Source: a virus (lineage: Duplodnaviria > Caudoviricetes). From it: a stretch of 26,167 bases of DNA. The notes beneath the pieces were generated by a model. That model was given only the letters and a program-made list of their open reading frames with translations, did no database searches and was not told where the DNA came from. The position numbers and the translations under genes were made by a program. Positions within the stretch are counted from its first letter, which is position 1, and each line of letters starts with the position of its first letter. The DNA lies in the IMG/VR virus record IMGVR_UViG_3300048575_000498, positions 1-26,167 of that record; one strand, 5' to 3'. Below are positions 1,468 through 25,932 of this stretch, piece after piece.

Positions 1468-1494
1468 ACCAAAAGATGAAATGAGGTGTGGCAT

Positions 1495-2487
1495 ATGGCC
1501 TTGAACAAAAATGATGATGGTAAATGGGTTAATATTTTTGTGGTTGTTTACGTATTCGTACTTATTGTATTGGTGATAGCTATATTGGTTAGTGCATTAA
1601 ATATCAGCCTTACGACTAATGAAATAGTGTTGTTTATATCTGCATTAGCAAATATCGCAACTATAACCGGAGCATTTCTCATCTACAAACAAATTAAGCA
1701 GGCGACAAAAAGCTCAGATGCACAATTATCACAAGCTAATGTGATTCATGAAGAAAGTAGTAAGCATATGACCATTCGTGAATCTGTAGCTATAGCAAAA
1801 CTATTTCAAGAAAAAATTGTGACTTTAATATGCATTATAACTGATATATACTTTAGTTCTTCCTTAAAGGAATTTGCGGACAATAGGCTATCGGATAAAA
1901 ATATATATGATTTTGAAGAAAAGGAAGCAACGGCACTTTTTGGGCCTGACTGTTTAGAAAGACATAATAATGCCCTATTAAATTTAGATGCAAAGTTAGC
2001 ATATGGTTTTTTATGTGCCCATTTACCAAATGATCACTCTTTACAATCCATCAAAATTAAAGAAGATGGTTCATTAGATAAAAATCAAGTATTTGAAATT
2101 AGGTCAACATTTTTCAATATGATAAGCGATGCGTTGAACACACTAGAATGGATAGCTATGTTACTTAATACGGGTGCTGCTAATGATGATGTGATCTACC
2201 AATCTTTACATCAAAAACTACTGCCATTTATTAGGTTGAACTATTTCAGTATATCTTCATGTAACAAAGGATCAAATCCTGTTGATAAATTCTACTGTAA
2301 TCTACTAGAATTATATAATAGGTGGAATAGTAAAAGACTAGAAAAGTTAAATGAAATTGAACTGGCAGAAAAAGAAAGAGCTGATATTATGCAAACAACA
2401 GAAGCTCGCTTGCAAAAAATCGAACATGATACTAGAAAAAGGATAGTTGTAAATCCACCCAATGTAAAGCAAGCAGGCTCTTCGTGA
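1495..2487 (+). CDS. AT-rich moron: two N-terminal TM helices, a DUF4760-like soluble domain and a C-terminal coiled coil
   Basis: ATG at 1495 follows a GAGGTG RBS (the ORF track starts at the upstream GTG, 1486). LNTLEWIAM...G.ANDDVIYQSLH...FY.NL.ELYNRW resembles DUF4760. It is markedly more AT-rich than the virion genes. Confidence 0.75.
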   Translation: MALNKNDDGKWVNIFVVVYVFVLIVLVIAILVSALNISLTTNEIVLFISALANIATITGAFLIYKQIKQATKSSDAQLSQANVIHEESSKHMTIRESVAIAKLFQEKIVTLICIITDIYFSSSLKEFADNRLSDKNIYDFEEKEATALFGPDCLERHNNALLNLDAKLAYGFLCAHLPNDHSLQSIKIKEDGSLDKNQVFEIRSTFFNMISDALNTLEWIAMLLNTGAANDDVIYQSLHQKLLPFIRLNYFSISSCNKGSNPVDKFYCNLLELYNRWNSKRLEKLNEIELAEKERADIMQTTEARLQKIEHDTRKRIVVNPPNVKQAGSS

Positions 2488-18814: not shown

Positions 18815-20110
18815 TTAGGCGGCGGCGATGATCGCGATGGAGTTGGAGTACACAACGCCCGCAGCGGTACCGGATGCAGTGACCTTGCAGCGCAGGAACT
18901 TGCCAACGTTGGCCACAAGCGGGGTGACTGTCGCGCTGGTGGCGCCGGAGATATCGGAGTAGGTGCCCAGTGCGGTAGCGGCCACCTGCCACTGATAGGC
19001 GAGGGTAGCGGCAGATGCGGGCGTACCGGTGTAAGTGACAGCCAGAGCGTCGGTTTCATCATTGACCTGTACGTTCCCGGAGAGAACAACGCCAGACAAC
19101 AGAGGCAGTACTTCGGCGGTAGGCACGGCAGTCTCAATGTATACCTTCTTGCCGCTCTTGGGTTTGACAAAACTGGGATTGATGTTGCTGATCTTGGCGT
19201 GATACCATTCAGGGCCGTGGTCAAGTCCCAATTGGCCGTAGATCTGATAGGTATCGCCTGCGCCGGTCTTGGCCATAAGCTCACGGAAGAAGTTGCCTTT
19301 GCCGGGCACAGGCTGTTCAATGCGGCCAATCACAGCGGGGTTGAACAGGCCGATGGTGCCGGCGGGAAGGAACTCGCCCAAGTACAGGTTCACCAGGCCC
19401 AACGGGGTCAGGACGGATGAAAGCTTGATACCGTTCATGTCGCGGGCGGCGGGAACGATGGTCAAATCGTTGGCCTGTGCGTCGGCGTTCAGTTGATACA
19501 TAGATACGGCATCCATCCACAGTACCAGGCCGTTCAGCGTGCCGTTGGCCTCATACACCAGCTTCATCAGGTCCGCCACATCCCACAGTGTCAGCGGACG
19601 GCCGTCCAGGTCCATCAGATTGGACGTGATGGCAGCAAGCATACCGCGGGTTTTATTGATTTCGGTAGAAGCTGCAGCCTTGTTATACACACCGCGAATG
19701 AAGGTGTACTCAATGTCGCGGGCAATCTTGTCCATCTTTGCCGCTACCTGAAAATCAATCTCGCTGATGGGGTTGGCCTGCTGACCGGCGGCATTCAGGC
19801 CGGAAAGCGTGCCCATATTGGACTGCTTGGCATAGCTGTCACCAACAGTCTCCTGGAAAATTTGCGTTACGTTGGTCTTTTGGGACCGCGTAACGTGAGA
19901 TGCGGCAGGAGCTGTCAGGGAAGCGGTTTCGCTGATAGCCGGCTGTGCGCCACCTTCAGTCGCGTATTCCTGGCCAGTAACAAACTCCACATGGTTGGTC
20001 TGCTTAGCGTTGGCCGCAATCATGGAAGAGAACGGGGTGCGGGTGTTGCCTTTGTTGAACAACATACCGGAATAATTGAGAACATCGGACGTTACGATTC
20101 CAGCGGGCAT
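18815..20110 (-). CDS. Major capsid protein (SU10-MCP/DUF5309-like) with an in-frame C-terminal Ig-like domain
   Basis: TPFSSMI...TNVTQIFQE...FQVA.K..KIARDIEYTFI.G...QIYGQ.GLDHGPEWYH.KI, followed by an extension of about 100 aa containing YQWQ...ISGATS.T......VGK.LRC.VTA. Confidence 0.9.
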   Translation of the reverse strand: MPAGIVTSDVLNYSGMLFNKGNTRTPFSSMIAANAKQTNHVEFVTGQEYATEGGAQPAISETASLTAPAASHVTRSQKTNVTQIFQETVGDSYAKQSNMGTLSGLNAAGQQANPISEIDFQVAAKMDKIARDIEYTFIRGVYNKAAASTEINKTRGMLAAITSNLMDLDGRPLTLWDVADLMKLVYEANGTLNGLVLWMDAVSMYQLNADAQANDLTIVPAARDMNGIKLSSVLTPLGLVNLYLGEFLPAGTIGLFNPAVIGRIEQPVPGKGNFFRELMAKTGAGDTYQIYGQLGLDHGPEWYHAKISNINPSFVKPKSGKKVYIETAVPTAEVLPLLSGVVLSGNVQVNDETDALAVTYTGTPASAATLAYQWQVAATALGTYSDISGATSATVTPLVANVGKFLRCKVTASGTAAGVVYSNSIAIIAAA

Positions 20111-20123
20111 GAAATATCACTCC

Positions 20124-20675
20124 TTATTTTTTAGTTGCTTGTTCCGCCTGCTGGCGGATAAGGGATGCCACGAGCGGCATGTTACCGGTTTCGCGTGCAG
20201 CATCGATCTGCTGCTGTATGCCGGTAGCAGTAGCACCGCCCGGTGGCGGGTTGAATCCTGGGTTGGTTGCCGCGGGGGGCGGGGTCTGCTGCTGGGCATC
20301 GTCAAAGAACTCGCCAAAGTCGGTTTTGATCTTGGCAAGCTGTTCCTTTAGGTCTTTCGTATGGTCCAGTTTGTCATAGACCTGATCAAAGAACTTGCCT
20401 TTGACACCTTTGAAGTCTTCGCTTGCGCGTGCTTCGGTGCGCTTTTTGAAGCCTTCATGCGTCTCCTGCAGCTTGATGTAGTCCGGGTGCTTGGTGATGT
20501 CTGGTGCGGTTTTCTTTGCTTCATCGAGCGCCTTTGTTACTGCATCGGCGGCGGCCTTGTCGGCATCGGATTTGGTGAAGTAACCTTCCAAGATTTCGTC
20601 ACGGCTGCCCATGATGGCATCGATGTGCTCCTTGGGTACGCCCAAGTCAGCAAGGATTTTTCTGGTAAGTGGCAT
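20124..20675 (-). CDS. Capsid scaffolding protein
   Basis: The AAAGGAGG RBS supports a start at 20675 (MPLTRKILADLG...IDAIM). Charged and helical with a Pro/Gly-rich NPP tail, directly before the capsid gene. Confidence 0.85.
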   Translation of the reverse strand: MPLTRKILADLGVPKEHIDAIMGSRDEILEGYFTKSDADKAAADAVTKALDEAKKTAPDITKHPDYIKLQETHEGFKKRTEARASEDFKGVKGKFFDQVYDKLDHTKDLKEQLAKIKTDFGEFFDDAQQQTPPPAATNPGFNPPPGGATATGIQQQIDAARETGNMPLVASLIRQQAEQATKK

Positions 20676-20757
20676 TTTACGTCCTCCTTTTACGCCCGTA
20701 GACGGTGGGCGAATTGTGGCAGATAACGCACTGCCGGGCGAGTGATTTTGCATATGT

Positions 20758-20788
20758 AAAAAGCGCCTGCCCTCTCGGGTGGCGCTTG
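20758..20788 (-). terminator. Intrinsic terminator after the putative immunity gene
   Basis: Minus strand AAGCGCC-ACCC-GAGA-GGG-CA-GGCGCTT followed by TTT. Confidence 0.65.
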
Positions 20789-20802: not shown

Positions 20803-21024
20803 TTATTTAGTTATTGACAACGCTTCAGCTTCGCTGATCGGTTCAAGAAGCTCCATGACGCTTGAACTGCCAACCCGGTCTGCCTCGTAACCAATGATGC
20901 GATCCATCAGAATATGATCCTTATCAGGGACCCAACCTTTTCCGGACTGAAAAATGGAGCAATCAAACATGCTGTCCTGCCGGCCAATTATTCCTTTGTC
21001 CTTTATCCGGTAGTAATTTGACAT
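20803..21024 (-). CDS. Putative immunity protein for the MuF toxin domain (IapK-like by position)
   Basis: 73 aa, starting 1 nt after the toxin stop. N-terminal YYR, a central W..D and a C-terminal EPISEAEA. Lower GC, like the toxin domain. Confidence 0.65.
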   Translation of the reverse strand: MSNYYRIKDKGIIGRQDSMFDCSIFQSGKGWVPDKDHILMDRIIGYEADRVGSSSVMELLEPISEAEALSITK

Positions 21025-21025
21025 G

Positions 21026-22621
21026 TTATTTCACCCTTTCAATGCCTTCAGGTCGAGTAAGAGAATCAGACAAGCGTTGCATTGCTGTTTCCAGTGGCCT
21101 GCGCTCCGGATTGCCTATGGGCAACACACGCCATTGCTCGTACAGCTTATGCATTTCGCCGTTTTTGAGTTCAAAGCTTTCAGGCGTGTGATACTGCATT
21201 TCGAACTTTTGCCCATTTGGTGCTGTAATTGTTGTGTTTACACCCTTATAAGGGTTCATGGGGTTGAGCCAAGTGTTCTTGATCTCAATTGTATTATATC
21301 CGTTTTGGGAAAAGGTGTCAATCGAAGCAAGGGCTTTGTCTGCAAGCGATTTTGGGGAAGCTGTAAGGGTATACCGTACAATATCCTTAACCTCGTACTC
21401 ATTCCCATCAGGACTGTAATTGGCTTCAACCTTGCGAATGTATGAATCCTGGCTCTTGATTCGATATTCTAGGCCCGCAGGCTTCATGCCAACCATGTGC
21501 GCCGTCTGCTTCACTGCGCGGGTAATTTCCGGCTCATTTGCAACGGCGCGATTATAATACCCCATAGCTTTATACTTGGCTTGCAGCTTACCCCAGTTCT
21601 CACCGTCAGCGGATTTCATGGCTCGGAAGCCGCTGAAAGTCTTTGGCGCATTATCTCCAAGGCGGGCTTTGTACTTCTCCCACTGCTTTCGGTCCCGCAG
21701 CCGTTCGGACAGCTTCTTTTGTGCGGCGTTGTATCGGTTGATTTCAGCCTCGCCGCGCGGATCGGTGTCGAAGGGCTTGCCAGCACTCTGAAGCGCTGCC
21801 TGCTTCTCCTGCTCGGTCTTCTGCCCCCACACATAGGGCAGCAATCTATGAGCACAATTCGGATGCACCGTCTTGTACGTTGGCCATCGGGGCATACCCT
21901 GGGCGATGAAAGGGAATGCCTGCCGTTCATCTCCAGGTTGGAAGTCTTTCAACCTGTACACCCGGCCCTGACGGGGTGCGCAGATCTTGCAGGTGGTGCT
22001 ATGGGCACTCATCTTCACCAGGTACTCGCCCATCTCGGTCATCTGATTGATCGTGCCGGTGTTGGTGGCCTCTGCCGTTGTGGTCCTGGCCACCAACTCT
22101 GCGTAACTGTCCACCCGCATGCTGCCCCGACCATTGCGCCAGGGAACGGTGAAGAACTTTTCGTCAATGAGGACCTTCTGCATTTCCTTGTTCATCTGAT
22201 TCCAGGTGAGGTTTTCACCAAACTTACGGGTGGTCATAAATAGCCCGATTTCCCGGACGGTATCAGCGGCCTGCCGGGCAATCAGGTTATTGGTGATGAA
22301 TAGGTAGCCCTGCGTGTTATGCACCAGCATCTCAATAGCTCGGGTGTGCATACCCGTAAACGCGCTATAGGCAGGCATGACGGCAGTGGGGGAGATGATC
22401 TTGTATGCATCCATGGCACCGCCGATAAACGATTCCTGTACTGCTGCCTGGGTCCATTCCTTTACGGTTTTGTTTAACCTGCCAATCTCCACGTCAATGG
22501 CATCCAGCAGGGCACGTTCCTGATCAGCGCTGCGGCCCCAGAATACCCGGCGCTTGATCTCTTTGATAAGGCGATCCCGGCTGGACATGTAGGCGCTGAT
22601 TAGCTTCTCGGCGTAGGTCAT
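21026..22621 (-). CDS. Minor capsid (MuF / Phage_min_cap2-type) protein with a C-terminal RelA/SpoT-fold nucleotidyltransferase toxin domain (Apk2-like)
   Basis: N-terminal part: VDSYAELVARTT, H.TTC.IC.P.QGRVY and HPNC.H. C-terminal ~180 aa: R387 RIKSQDSYIRK, D413 DIVRYT, Y458 YKGVN and E474 EMQYHT. Confidence 0.85.
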   Translation of the reverse strand: MTYAEKLISAYMSSRDRLIKEIKRRVFWGRSADQERALLDAIDVEIGRLNKTVKEWTQAAVQESFIGGAMDAYKIISPTAVMPAYSAFTGMHTRAIEMLVHNTQGYLFITNNLIARQAADTVREIGLFMTTRKFGENLTWNQMNKEMQKVLIDEKFFTVPWRNGRGSMRVDSYAELVARTTTAEATNTGTINQMTEMGEYLVKMSAHSTTCKICAPRQGRVYRLKDFQPGDERQAFPFIAQGMPRWPTYKTVHPNCAHRLLPYVWGQKTEQEKQAALQSAGKPFDTDPRGEAEINRYNAAQKKLSERLRDRKQWEKYKARLGDNAPKTFSGFRAMKSADGENWGKLQAKYKAMGYYNRAVANEPEITRAVKQTAHMVGMKPAGLEYRIKSQDSYIRKVEANYSPDGNEYEVKDIVRYTLTASPKSLADKALASIDTFSQNGYNTIEIKNTWLNPMNPYKGVNTTITAPNGQKFEMQYHTPESFELKNGEMHKLYEQWRVLPIGNPERRPLETAMQRLSDSLTRPEGIERVK

Positions 22622-24120
22622 ACACCTTCATCAACTCCATCCTGTTTATCGTCTTCAGTAGGTTCATCAGGCTCTTTGCTGGGCTCCAGCATTGCCGCCA
22701 TAGCCGCCGCCTGCTCGTCCAGGATGACTTCCAACTCTTCTTCGGCGTCTTCCTCGGACATCTCGTCCAACTCCATGATGGCCCGTTTGGTACTCTGCGT
22801 CTGCTTGCTGCCGGTACGCATGTTGGCAATTTCGGCCATCTCCTTGGGGTCACGGGGTAGGGGATCAGGCCAGTCGATGGAAATAGACTTGCCCACAAGG
22901 CTTGTCCCTGACACTTGGCTGGCCAGAAGCAGCGCTTTCTTGATAGCCGCCGCGAAGTTGTTTCGCAGGCGGGCAATTTTACTGATTGCGTTGTACAGCA
23001 TCCGGCGCATTGCCGCCCCGGAAGGGATGGCGCCGGACTTGTCAGACAGGTCCGACAGTAAAGAGCCCATACCCGATATGACGCGGATCAGCTCGATCAC
23101 CTTTTCGATGTACTTATAATTGGCCTCAAGCTCGGCGTCCCAGGTGATGTACTCGATCTTCCCTTGGGTCGCTCCGGCTTGATTGACAAAATACTGCCCA
23201 GGGATAAACGTCTTTTGAACATTGCCGTCTGCGTCCGTGGTGATCTGCAATGCGTCTTCCGGCCCCTGCATCGTGGGGTTGGTGTGCCGGTCCAGCACGG
23301 TGGCGATCTGCGCCATGCGCACTTCCAACTCACACACCAGAGCTTGAATATCAGCATAATCATCGAAGCCATGCACCCGATCAGATGTGCGCAGGTTAGG
23401 CACGGGGATTACCGAAAAGTCGGTCATGCCGGTTTGAACGATGCGCTTTTTTCCCGGTGTTTCGGTTACAAGCTCTCCGATCCTGCCGCCGTACAGCTTG
23501 TGATCGCGTATCTCATAGCTGCCTTTGCTGTGGATCTCAATGCGCAGGTACTGTTCCGGAGGCACGCCAACCACTGATGAAGTGCTGTTGACCACGTAAG
23601 GGGTAGCCAGCACATGGTACTGCACGCGGCGGATGTTCGCACCGTCCACGACTGGGTACCATACGTCGGGCCTGGACAGGTCAATGATGCCTTTCCCGCC
23701 TTCATCACGCACCAGAAGAAGGCCGTCGCCGAACCGGCTGACATCCAGGGCACATGTGTACAGCGTGTCTTGCAGGGCACTGCGTTCGGTTATGTCCTGT
23801 GCTGCAAGCATAGCGGGCGTATCGTTTTTGTCGCCTGCCACAATACCTGGGATCTTGTTGAATAGCAGCCCGGCAGTAGACACGCTGATCAGCTTGGGGA
23901 AGTTGACAACCACCTCATACGACACTGCCGGCGTAGGGATGCCCGAATCTGCTGCCTCGCGCATGATTCGCTTGAATGCTTCCGCAAACACACCATTGTT
24001 GATCCCGGCATGTTCGGCCTCGAACAATTTGCGGTTGTCGATATATGTCTGCATGCGGTCCTGTTCGCTCACGGGCGGCCAGGCAGCGCCGGTCTGAATA
24101 AATGTCAAATCAGTCAACAT
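22618..24120 (-). CDS. Portal protein (SPP1 gp6-like)
   Basis: 500 aa, after TerL. Contains N..KLIS...A.LLF, G.DDY.DI, IEYITWD, SGAAMRR and I.WPD.LPRD motifs, with an acidic tail. Confidence 0.92.
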   Translation of the reverse strand: MLTDLTFIQTGAAWPPVSEQDRMQTYIDNRKLFEAEHAGINNGVFAEAFKRIMREAADSGIPTPAVSYEVVVNFPKLISVSTAGLLFNKIPGIVAGDKNDTPAMLAAQDITERSALQDTLYTCALDVSRFGDGLLLVRDEGGKGIIDLSRPDVWYPVVDGANIRRVQYHVLATPYVVNSTSSVVGVPPEQYLRIEIHSKGSYEIRDHKLYGGRIGELVTETPGKKRIVQTGMTDFSVIPVPNLRTSDRVHGFDDYADIQALVCELEVRMAQIATVLDRHTNPTMQGPEDALQITTDADGNVQKTFIPGQYFVNQAGATQGKIEYITWDAELEANYKYIEKVIELIRVISGMGSLLSDLSDKSGAIPSGAAMRRMLYNAISKIARLRNNFAAAIKKALLLASQVSGTSLVGKSISIDWPDPLPRDPKEMAEIANMRTGSKQTQSTKRAIMELDEMSEEDAEEELEVILDEQAAAMAAMLEPSKEPDEPTEDDKQDGVDEGV

Positions 24121-24127
24121 AAAAAAG

Positions 24128-25402
24128 TCATCTCCTTACTGGCGCAGCGGCCGCAAAACCAAGTTTTCCACCAGTTGATACAGGCTCCACGCCGTACCGA
24201 CCGGCATCAATGGTGTGGTTATTTTTGTCTGGATACTCAGCAAGGAAGTTACCGAAGCGGTCCTGCTTATACTCATAACCTGAATACTCACGGGCAACAT
24301 TTGGGCACAGGATTGGATCGATCCAGATGCATGCCAGATCTTGCAGCCAGCGCATACCGTGCTCGACACTGCCCGCGCCTTTCTTGGCCGGCAATGCCCG
24401 GATGCCGCGGCGCTTCAGCTCGTTGATCATGCGCGGGTCTTCATTGTCGCAGGTGATGTACTCGACTCCGATCAGTGCCATGACTCTCTCAGCCAGTACA
24501 TCGGCATTCATTCCTGACCCGTACACCTCGCCAGTGAAGTACAAGGTTCGAAGTTTCGAAGAGTAATGCATCCTGACAACGGCATCCGGATCCCCGGCAA
24601 ATCCAAAGTCCTCGCCGTTGTAAAAGCGGTCAAACGTCTTGCGCAGATCTTCGGGAATGGATTCAATCTTGAGATTGTCGAACACCTGGCCGCCAGTCCC
24701 GGTGATCTCGCCAAGGTAAATATGACGGTACGCCTTCTCATTTGTGGCCTTTAGTGCTTCTGCTGCTTCCAAGAAAGAAGGCCCCAGCCATTCAGGCGGG
24801 ACCTGCGTATAATCACTGTGATGCACCAGGCGGCCGGGGACAGGGATCAGGCATTCGGCGTTGGTCCAGTTGTTTGCCGACTTTGGTGGGTTATAACTGT
24901 AAAAAGTAAATGCATGCCCGCCGCCGCGAATGATGCTGGCCTTGATTGTCCGGATGTCATCCAACCCAGCGAATTCGGTCAGCTCTTCAAACCAGAGGTA
25001 TTTGAAATAACCTTTTTTGAGCTTGATGGATTTGCTCTTGCCCGGGTCGTCAGCTCCGCGGAACATGATCCGCTGCCCTGTAGGCATGTAGATGATCTCC
25101 ATGGGGCTGACCTTGCACTTGAACCAGGGCCCCAGCTCCAGGGCGTTGATGGCCCATTCTATTTGCTCGTATACGCTATCGCGCAGGGTGTCGGCAACCT
25201 TACGGTAAACGATGGCATTGGCTTCCGGATCGCGAACAATGCCCTGCACAATCTCAAGGCTGATGAACGAAGATTTGGCGCTGCCGCGCCCACCCTTCAG
25301 CCAGTACTCACTGTATGCCTCCCGGCGGATGTCCTGATGTACGGTATAAAACGCCGGCCCGGTGATCTGCGATATGCGGATCTCAGCCACTGCCACCACC
25401 AC
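24128..25402 (-). CDS. terL: Terminase large subunit (PBSX family)
   Basis: Walker A GGRGSAKS, Walker B LWFEE, SYNPP, and nuclease motifs DFG and D..NHTIDA.RY. The exact start among nearby GTG codons is uncertain. Confidence 0.95.
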   Translation of the reverse strand: MVVAVAEIRISQITGPAFYTVHQDIRREAYSEYWLKGGRGSAKSSFISLEIVQGIVRDPEANAIVYRKVADTLRDSVYEQIEWAINALELGPWFKCKVSPMEIIYMPTGQRIMFRGADDPGKSKSIKLKKGYFKYLWFEELTEFAGLDDIRTIKASIIRGGGHAFTFYSYNPPKSANNWTNAECLIPVPGRLVHHSDYTQVPPEWLGPSFLEAAEALKATNEKAYRHIYLGEITGTGGQVFDNLKIESIPEDLRKTFDRFYNGEDFGFAGDPDAVVRMHYSSKLRTLYFTGEVYGSGMNADVLAERVMALIGVEYITCDNEDPRMINELKRRGIRALPAKKGAGSVEHGMRWLQDLACIWIDPILCPNVAREYSGYEYKQDRFGNFLAEYPDKNNHTIDAGRYGVEPVSTGGKLGFAAAAPVRR

Positions 25403-25886
25403 CGATATCGTCCACGATCTTCGGAAGGCTGACGTTTAGGTTTATGTCATCCTTGAACATGCCCAGATGCCTGCCCAGCAGCTCTAACGACTTTGTTTTG
25501 TCGCAGAGCTTTACTTCGCGCTCAATGCTGGGATAATCACCAAAAGTCTCTTTTACCTTCACTGATGCAATCGCTGCTATGTCATCGGCGTCGGCATCCG
25601 CTTTCACTGTAGCGTCCTTCATGTTGATCACGTCCGACGCCTTAATAAATCCGATGCGGGCCAGCTCCTGAACAACGCGATCAGCGGATATACCGACACG
25701 CTTTGACCTTTCGGCTTTAAGTTCGTCTATACGCGCACGGATACTAGGCTTTACCATAAGCTGCGCCGCGTTCACGTCAGCATTCTTCGATGCATAACCA
25801 GCACGGATGTAAGCCCGTGTCTGTATCATGTCAATCATGTACTCTTGGCAAAACAATTCATGCTTTGCATTTTTGAGTTCAGGCAC
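25383..25886 (-). CDS. terS: Terminase small subunit
   Basis: FCQEY..D...TRAYIRAGY HTH region and DK.KSLELLGRHLGMF. GTG start at 25886 after AAGGTGGTG. Confidence 0.92.
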   Translation of the reverse strand: MPELKNAKHELFCQEYMIDMIQTRAYIRAGYASKNADVNAAQLMVKPSIRARIDELKAERSKRVGISADRVVQELARIGFIKASDVINMKDATVKADADADDIAAIASVKVKETFGDYPSIEREVKLCDKTKSLELLGRHLGMFKDDINLNVSLPKIVDDIGGGGSG

Positions 25887-25904
25887 AGGCTCACCACCTT
25901 TCAA

Positions 25905-25932
25905 ACAAAAAAGACACATTGCTGTGCCTTTT
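25905..25932 (-). terminator. Intrinsic terminator between the 72-aa gene and terS
   Basis: Minus strand AAAAGGCACA-GCAA-TGTGTCTTTT followed by TTG. Confidence 0.7.

Follow-up and report, generated by a model that had tools for sequence, protein, structure and literature searches.

The protein encoded directly after the portal gene of this phage is a MuF2 head protein fused to an alarmone synthetase of the Apk2 family, a known family of toxins. The locus as a whole probably specifies a MuF toxin that makes (p)ppApp, together with an immunity protein that plugs its active site and whose gene is likely to be transcribed independently, from a promoter-like site within the gene for the toxin. A preliminary description of this DNA had accounted for the toxin but had overlooked both the immunity gene and the embedded site.

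Positions refer to the window, the whole stretch of 26,167 nucleotides from IMG/VR record IMGVR_UViG_3300048575_000498 that was analysed, and sources cited "in part" are represented by the portion of their text that was available. The muF2-apk2 gene (531 aa; 21026..22621) overlaps the portal gene (22618..24120; PF05133) by 4 bp. On the same minus strand lie the genes for the large and small terminase subunits (24128..25919; PF04466/PF17288 and PF03592) and for the scaffold and major capsid proteins (18815..20675; PF06810, below its cut-off, and PF17236). The window's ORF list contains no HD/Aph1 gene in the interval from the immunity gene to the scaffold gene, and no integrase was identified among the ORFs scanned in the window, which is a partial genome. 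An identical immunity protein is found on 8 contigs, the longest of 169 kb, which suggests a prophage origin; the named close relatives are Bacillota, mostly Clostridia.

The C-terminal domain (aa 353–531; 21026..21565, minus strand), recognised from its fold, its motifs and a shift in GC and GC3, is a SYNTH fold homologous to Tas1. Its motifs, all on the minus strand, are syn1, RIKSQDSYIRK (aa 387–397; 21431..21463); syn2, DIVRYT (21368..21385), in which D413 and R416 align with D121 and R124 of SaEAS; syn3, the G-loop, YKGVN (21236..21250), in which N462 aligns with N169; and syn4, EMQYHT (21185..21202), in which E474 and Q476 align with E182 and Q184. The catalytic Asp and Glu are intact, and RYT (syn2), GxN (syn3) and YH (syn4), which are named in PMC12226406 as adenosine 3'-pyrophosphokinase signatures, are all present. 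These results bear out the preliminary description in its report of four variant RelA/SpoT synthetase motifs in the last ~180 residues and in its assignment of the domain to an Apk2/Tas1-like family from those motifs.

A domain search returned 327 proteins among 597 candidates. DxxRY[TA], YxGxN and ExQ[YF]HT occur in 120 of the 120 homologues listed and the variants typical of canonical (p)ppGpp synthetases (RelP/RelQ), Yx[GS]xH or ExQ[ILV]RT, in none of them; the window protein likewise lacks the syn3 SxH and syn4 IR motifs of the RelP/RelQ small alarmone synthetases. The carrier in the same 120 matches is PF04233 in 101, PF06152 in 18 and neither in 1. Among annotated phages there are 128 records, the 40 best of which are MuF proteins from phages of Streptococcus, Mannheimia and Pasteurella, and the Mannheimia phage protein equals the tested J451_00890 in length and MuF boundaries. 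Tested members of the family make (p)ppApp, and Apk2 domains use up ATP, with a bacteriostatic or a bactericidal effect according to dose (PMC12226406; PMC10083569, in part). The available portion of PMC10083569 counts 89 MuF-fused members, with a Tis1-like gene always downstream and Aph1 sometimes absent. Since the Aph1 hydrolase is described there as variably present, its absence here is compatible with Apk2 membership. The domain also matches Ralstonia phages, which make up 84 of the 128 phage records, and the C-terminus of models for XopAD/SKWP effectors, and the latter link is mentioned in PMC12691689 (in part).

The pairing of MuF2 with RelA_SpoT is already in print for Clostridium cellulolyticum H10 (Jamet 2017, Table S5, in part), and therefore the toxin belongs to a known family. 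The suggestion that this Clostridia-type variant might be uncharacterised is fair as regards biochemistry but does not extend to the architecture. An entry for Alkalibaculum sp. M08DMB also stands in the Tas1 jackhmmer list of PMC10083569 (in part).

The carrier with its helical linker (aa 1–351; 21569..22621, minus strand) contains the N-terminal MuF domain of a phage head module: aa 159–319 match PF06152, which is MuF2 in Jamet's scheme, with an E value of 7e-17 and 61.8 bits against a cut-off of 26.3. Alignments of relatives end near aa 351, and the carrier part is common to relatives without a toxin and to relatives with other tails. A query with aa 1–345 gave 88 relatives, in 86 of which the linker could be located. 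Past the linker, 35 of the 88 have tails of at most 40 aa (some maybe cut by contig ends), 5 have an Apk domain and 46 have other extensions, which form 12 BLAST groups, the largest (n = 25) including DUF6883 matches; 2 were unplaced. The nearest relative (88% identical) has an 11-aa tail and the second nearest (84% identical) an unrelated tail of 124 aa. At the junction GC3 drops from 0.70 in the carrier part (GC 0.56) to 0.49 in the toxin domain (GC 0.47). This is a conserved carrier with interchangeable C-terminal domains, as in MuF polymorphic toxins. Because the tails of relatives differ or are missing and GC3 falls at the junction, the toxin domain has been swapped in at about aa 351 and would be accessory to head assembly. 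In many MuF2 relatives (P0147, P0149, P0155 and others), with or without a toxin tail, the carrier domain is also interrupted by an intein (PF14890).

One nucleotide after the toxin stop lies a 73-aa gene (20803..21024, minus strand) that resembles IapK/Tis1 immunity genes by profile match and in a predicted complex. A profile of 8 downstream genes from other loci ranked it first among 324 window segments (E 6e-4, with 1.6 for the runner-up), and a profile of the four Streptococcus, Mannheimia and Pasteurella genes only gave E 0.45, a weak link to tested-type IapK. There was no match to Pfam Tis1, and ESM Atlas gave a weak lead to PF24154 Tis1_ImmP clusters. An immunity-like gene follows 49 of 52 representative toxins, as judged with a profile built partly from those loci; of the three representatives lacking it, one is cut short. 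The predicted toxin–immunity complex scored 0.88 against 0.01 for the best control, passing a mark reached by 116 of 157 solved pairs and 2 of 215 mismatched pairs, with at least 95% agreement in contacts among runs and a partner pLDDT of at least 91; since Tas1–Tis1 has already been solved, this pass may show likeness instead of binding. The predicted interface comprises D413, R416, Y458, G460, N462, E474 and Q476, and its contacts are tightest at the G-loop; the 73-aa protein is thus predicted to plug the toxin's active site. By eye at least three subtypes can be told apart among the immunity genes (the LMDRIIGY, GWVESG and PEQCCI types). The subtype of the window is also found downstream of distant toxins (L019, L020), a distribution suggestive of immunity-gene exchange. 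In ESM Atlas, the immunity protein aligns structurally (TM 0.59) with a Bacteroidota cluster of 349 aa that has an HD domain and is possibly an IapK–Aph fusion.

The domain is predicted to turn ATP/ADP into (p)ppApp. The preliminary description had drawn this product from the motifs, and the signatures do agree with those of PMC12226406. The motifs alone, however, do not fix the product, because SaEAS, with RYT, YKGLN and EVQFHT, makes both pppApp and pppGpp (PMC12691689, in part) and because motif swaps yielded no ppGpp enzyme (PMC12226406). It is conceivable, though improbable, that the same toxin–immunity module houses a promiscuous or guanosine-specific enzyme like SaEAS, AaEAS or VpEAS and exerts its effect by way of (p)ppGpp or of both alarmones. 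SaEAS is the closest solved structure and the best match in structure and sequence, AaEAS and VpEAS, which the same Apk1-seeded search had yielded, make (p)ppGpp alone (PMC12691689, in part), and the swaps did not switch specificity; Aph-like HD genes, which follow 12 of 49 loci, 2 of them in the promoter group, argue against such an enzyme. Blocking of the acceptor site in the manner of Tis1 is associated with (pp)pApp enzymes, and the tRNA-targeting ones are associated with pZFD antitoxins (PMC11782079, in part), so that (p)ppApp is favoured. Where a donor-site block of the pZFD (FaRel2/CapRel) type is concerned, the predicted contacts of the partner centre on the G-loop, and it is very improbable that the domain pyrophosphorylates the 3' CCA ends of tRNA like FaRel2, CapRel and PhRel.

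Codons I434–N443 of the toxin ORF spell TTGACA-17-TATAAT (21293..21321, minus strand), a perfect sigma-70/sigma-A-type consensus (12/12) that is predicted to be a promoter. The site lies 3' of the catalytic Asp codon, and of syn1 and syn2, and faces the immunity gene. The window holds two perfect sites and 100 shuffles held none. With the protein fixed, synonymous shuffling restored the site 8% of the time in the window alone, and relatives were therefore tested for conservation at the codon level. They were gathered by a syn4-derived pattern, away from the promoter-like site; 246 sequences (window included) gave 231 with the full domain and 52 representatives at <80% identity. In representatives with I..YN, the Ile codon is ATT in 25/25 (11.7 expected, P 3e-9), the Tyr codon TAT in 23/25 (15.9 expected, P 9e-4) and the Asn codon AAT in 25/25 (16.2 expected, P 6e-6), where expected counts come from each gene's own usage and the P values ignore relatedness. 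GAC in the site is not enriched (5/15).

In a tree computed with the site masked, 26 of 27 site-bearing rows fall inside one 29-row clade (98/94 support), separate from a 12-row clade with tested-type toxins. Within the 29-row clade, conservation at the third base is 0.97 in codon 443, 0.93 in codon 442 and 0.90 in codon 434 (median 0.45), all within the top 5 of 173 columns. The promoter-like site is conserved at the DNA level. It is unlikely that it is only a by-product of the peptide I-D-x5-G-Y-N, or that another DNA or RNA constraint, such as a protein-binding site, holds it in place with no promoter. Other conserved Ile columns have their top codon at just 0.36–0.56; the residue after I434 always has a codon starting with G (D, E, V or A; 27/27); TTG and TATAAT are kept where the Ile itself has changed, in L142 (Val) and L200 (Phe); both exceptions at Y442 read TACAAT, with the key A2 and T6 retained; and ATT and AAT occur in all nine members with GC3 of at least 0.4. 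Such an origin would be in keeping with the 8% recurrence noted above, with the lack of independence among related sequences and with the third position of F483, which is likewise at 0.93 in the 29-row clade and is not explained by the site.

A promoter at codons 434–443 would complete a set of signals around the immunity gene. Its Shine-Dalgarno-like sequence, GAAAGGGTGA (21031..21040, minus strand), lies in the last codons of the toxin, E528 R529 V530 K531, and the third base of codon 529, G in 93% of the 29-row clade, also ranks within those top 5 columns and so serves as an internal positive control. Beyond the immunity gene lies a terminator-like GC-rich hairpin with a U tract (20757..20787, minus strand; -22.6 kcal/mol, z -4.25). 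A simple terminator scanner did not call this hairpin; similar ones occur after the immunity gene at 28 of 36 Aph-less loci, compared with 6 of 208 coding windows. The simplest reading is that a sigma-A promoter, the immunity gene and a terminator form a predicted unit of ~530 nt. No description of a promoter within a MuF toxin gene was found in the literature searched, most subscription papers lying outside the search.

The second perfect site, TTGACA-16-TATAAT (2766-2739, minus strand), comes after the lysis genes and is directed towards an ORF of 34 aa (2610-2506, minus strand) with a strong ribosome site, AAAGGAGG. This ORF is convergent on a 333-aa low-GC gene (1486-2487, plus strand) that has its own 11/12 promoter site at 1439. 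The region of the second site and the 34-aa ORF gave no match in Rfam, and it looks like lysogen-expressed cargo.

During lytic growth the late head operon would make toxin and immunity protein together, and a few copies of the toxin might go into the head along with the DNA, close to the portal, like SPP1 gp7, a low-copy portal-associated DNA-binding protein, and 80alpha gp44, which is ejected (PMC10083569 and PMC7290940, both in part). The toxin would then enter the next cell without the immunity protein, lower its ATP and, if that cell is naive, slow it. What would protect a lysogen is a ~530-nt transcript, bounded by the internal promoter and terminator, that supplies the immunity protein; this transcript would start past the catalytic Asp codon and therefore could not encode an active toxin. 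Packaging, ejection and effects on lysogeny or dormancy are in print as hypotheses (PMC10083569, in part; Jamet 2017), and both lysis–lysogeny and competition models have been proposed (Jamet 2017, discussion). The available portion of PMC11699363 gives the role of MuF toxins as unknown, and this source, PMC12226406 and PMC10083569 (in part) call their virion carriage and their victims unresolved. Immunity expressed in the lysogen fits competition or superinfection protection best; control of leaky expression explains it too.

That last possibility belongs to an account, less probable than delivery but deserving weight, in which the toxin is real and acts in the producing cell, as a lysogen addiction module, in abortive infection or as a late-cycle brake, with the promoter guarding against leak. 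Delivery of Apk2 is still hypothetical in print, and internal promoters have made type II toxin–antitoxin modules of Salmonella rhs ends (PMC7043789, in part). An orphan toxin–immunity cassette also exists outside any head module, ~1 kb after an integrase (L002:3863-4752); its 229-aa toxin ORF starts in the conserved linker, without MuF, and keeps 11/12 of the promoter site. Against action in the producing cell, the site lies 3' of syn1 and syn2, so that its transcript cannot encode an active toxin, the fusion retains its position in the head module, and proteomics of phage StB12 detected a MuF toxin (PMC5576092, in part).

Delivery from the virion, with a protected lysogen, has a wider corollary. 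The site clade occurs widely across Bacillota genomes and metagenomes, with 29 representatives at <80% identity, among which no tested member was found. It is tentatively suggested, at slightly short of an even chance, that this large clade of Apk2 toxins carries a constitutive immunity unit inside the toxin cassette, with the sigma-A promoter in codons 434–443, the Shine-Dalgarno sequence in the last codons and the terminator after the immunity gene. Being inside the cassette, lysogen immunity would travel with each swap, whether the new carrier is MuF1 or MuF2. Production of immunity at a time of head-operon silence would be expected if the threat is toxin that virions bring in from outside: the prediction from a conserved immunity-only promoter is that the lysogen is exposed to toxin at a time when late genes are off. 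If true, this would amount to evidence from genomes that MuF toxins are injected weapons from which lysogens are spared. The toxin is one more Apk2 of a described family, and its added value is testability, since synonymous changes in the promoter leave the protein intact and offer a clean handle on what MuF toxins do.

The closest known systems are Apk2/IapK of S. pneumoniae SPNA45, M. haemolytica D174 and P. multocida HN06 (PMC12226406) and Apk2/BcTis1/Aph1 of B. caccae (PMC10083569, in part). As in those Apk2 loci, a MuF carrier adjoining the portal gene bears a C-terminal synthetase with RYT, GxN and YH, and an immunity gene of ~70 aa lies downstream; in four aligned cases the toxin domain is 37–40% identical to those of phage MuF proteins from the first three of the species just named. 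The carrier is MuF2 (PF06152) here, whereas Jamet's table gives MuF1 for these three species. The window also differs from the known Apk2 loci in having no Aph1 and a toxin in a separate clade, and the known Apk2/IapK and B. caccae loci are without the embedded promoter-like site.

Other related systems differ in delivery. Apk1/Tas1–Tis1 of Pseudomonas aeruginosa (PDB 6OX6; 27% identity) is delivered by PAAR and a T6SS, in contrast to a phage head protein, and SaEAS of Streptomyces albidoflavus (PDB 8VX3; PMC12691689, in part) is Sec-exported, has no immunity gene and makes the two products given above. Ccel_3048/Ccel_3295 of the C. cellulolyticum H10 prophage share the MuF2–RelA_SpoT pairing; they are known from their table entry and have 643 aa against 531 in the window protein. 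For the embedded site, the nearest precedent is Salmonella rhs-CT/rhsI (PMC7043789, in part), where a promoter inside a polymorphic toxin ORF makes immunity independent of the delivery genes. The Salmonella transcript also yields active toxin, whereas that of the window, with its predicted start past the catalytic Asp codon, would provide immunity only.
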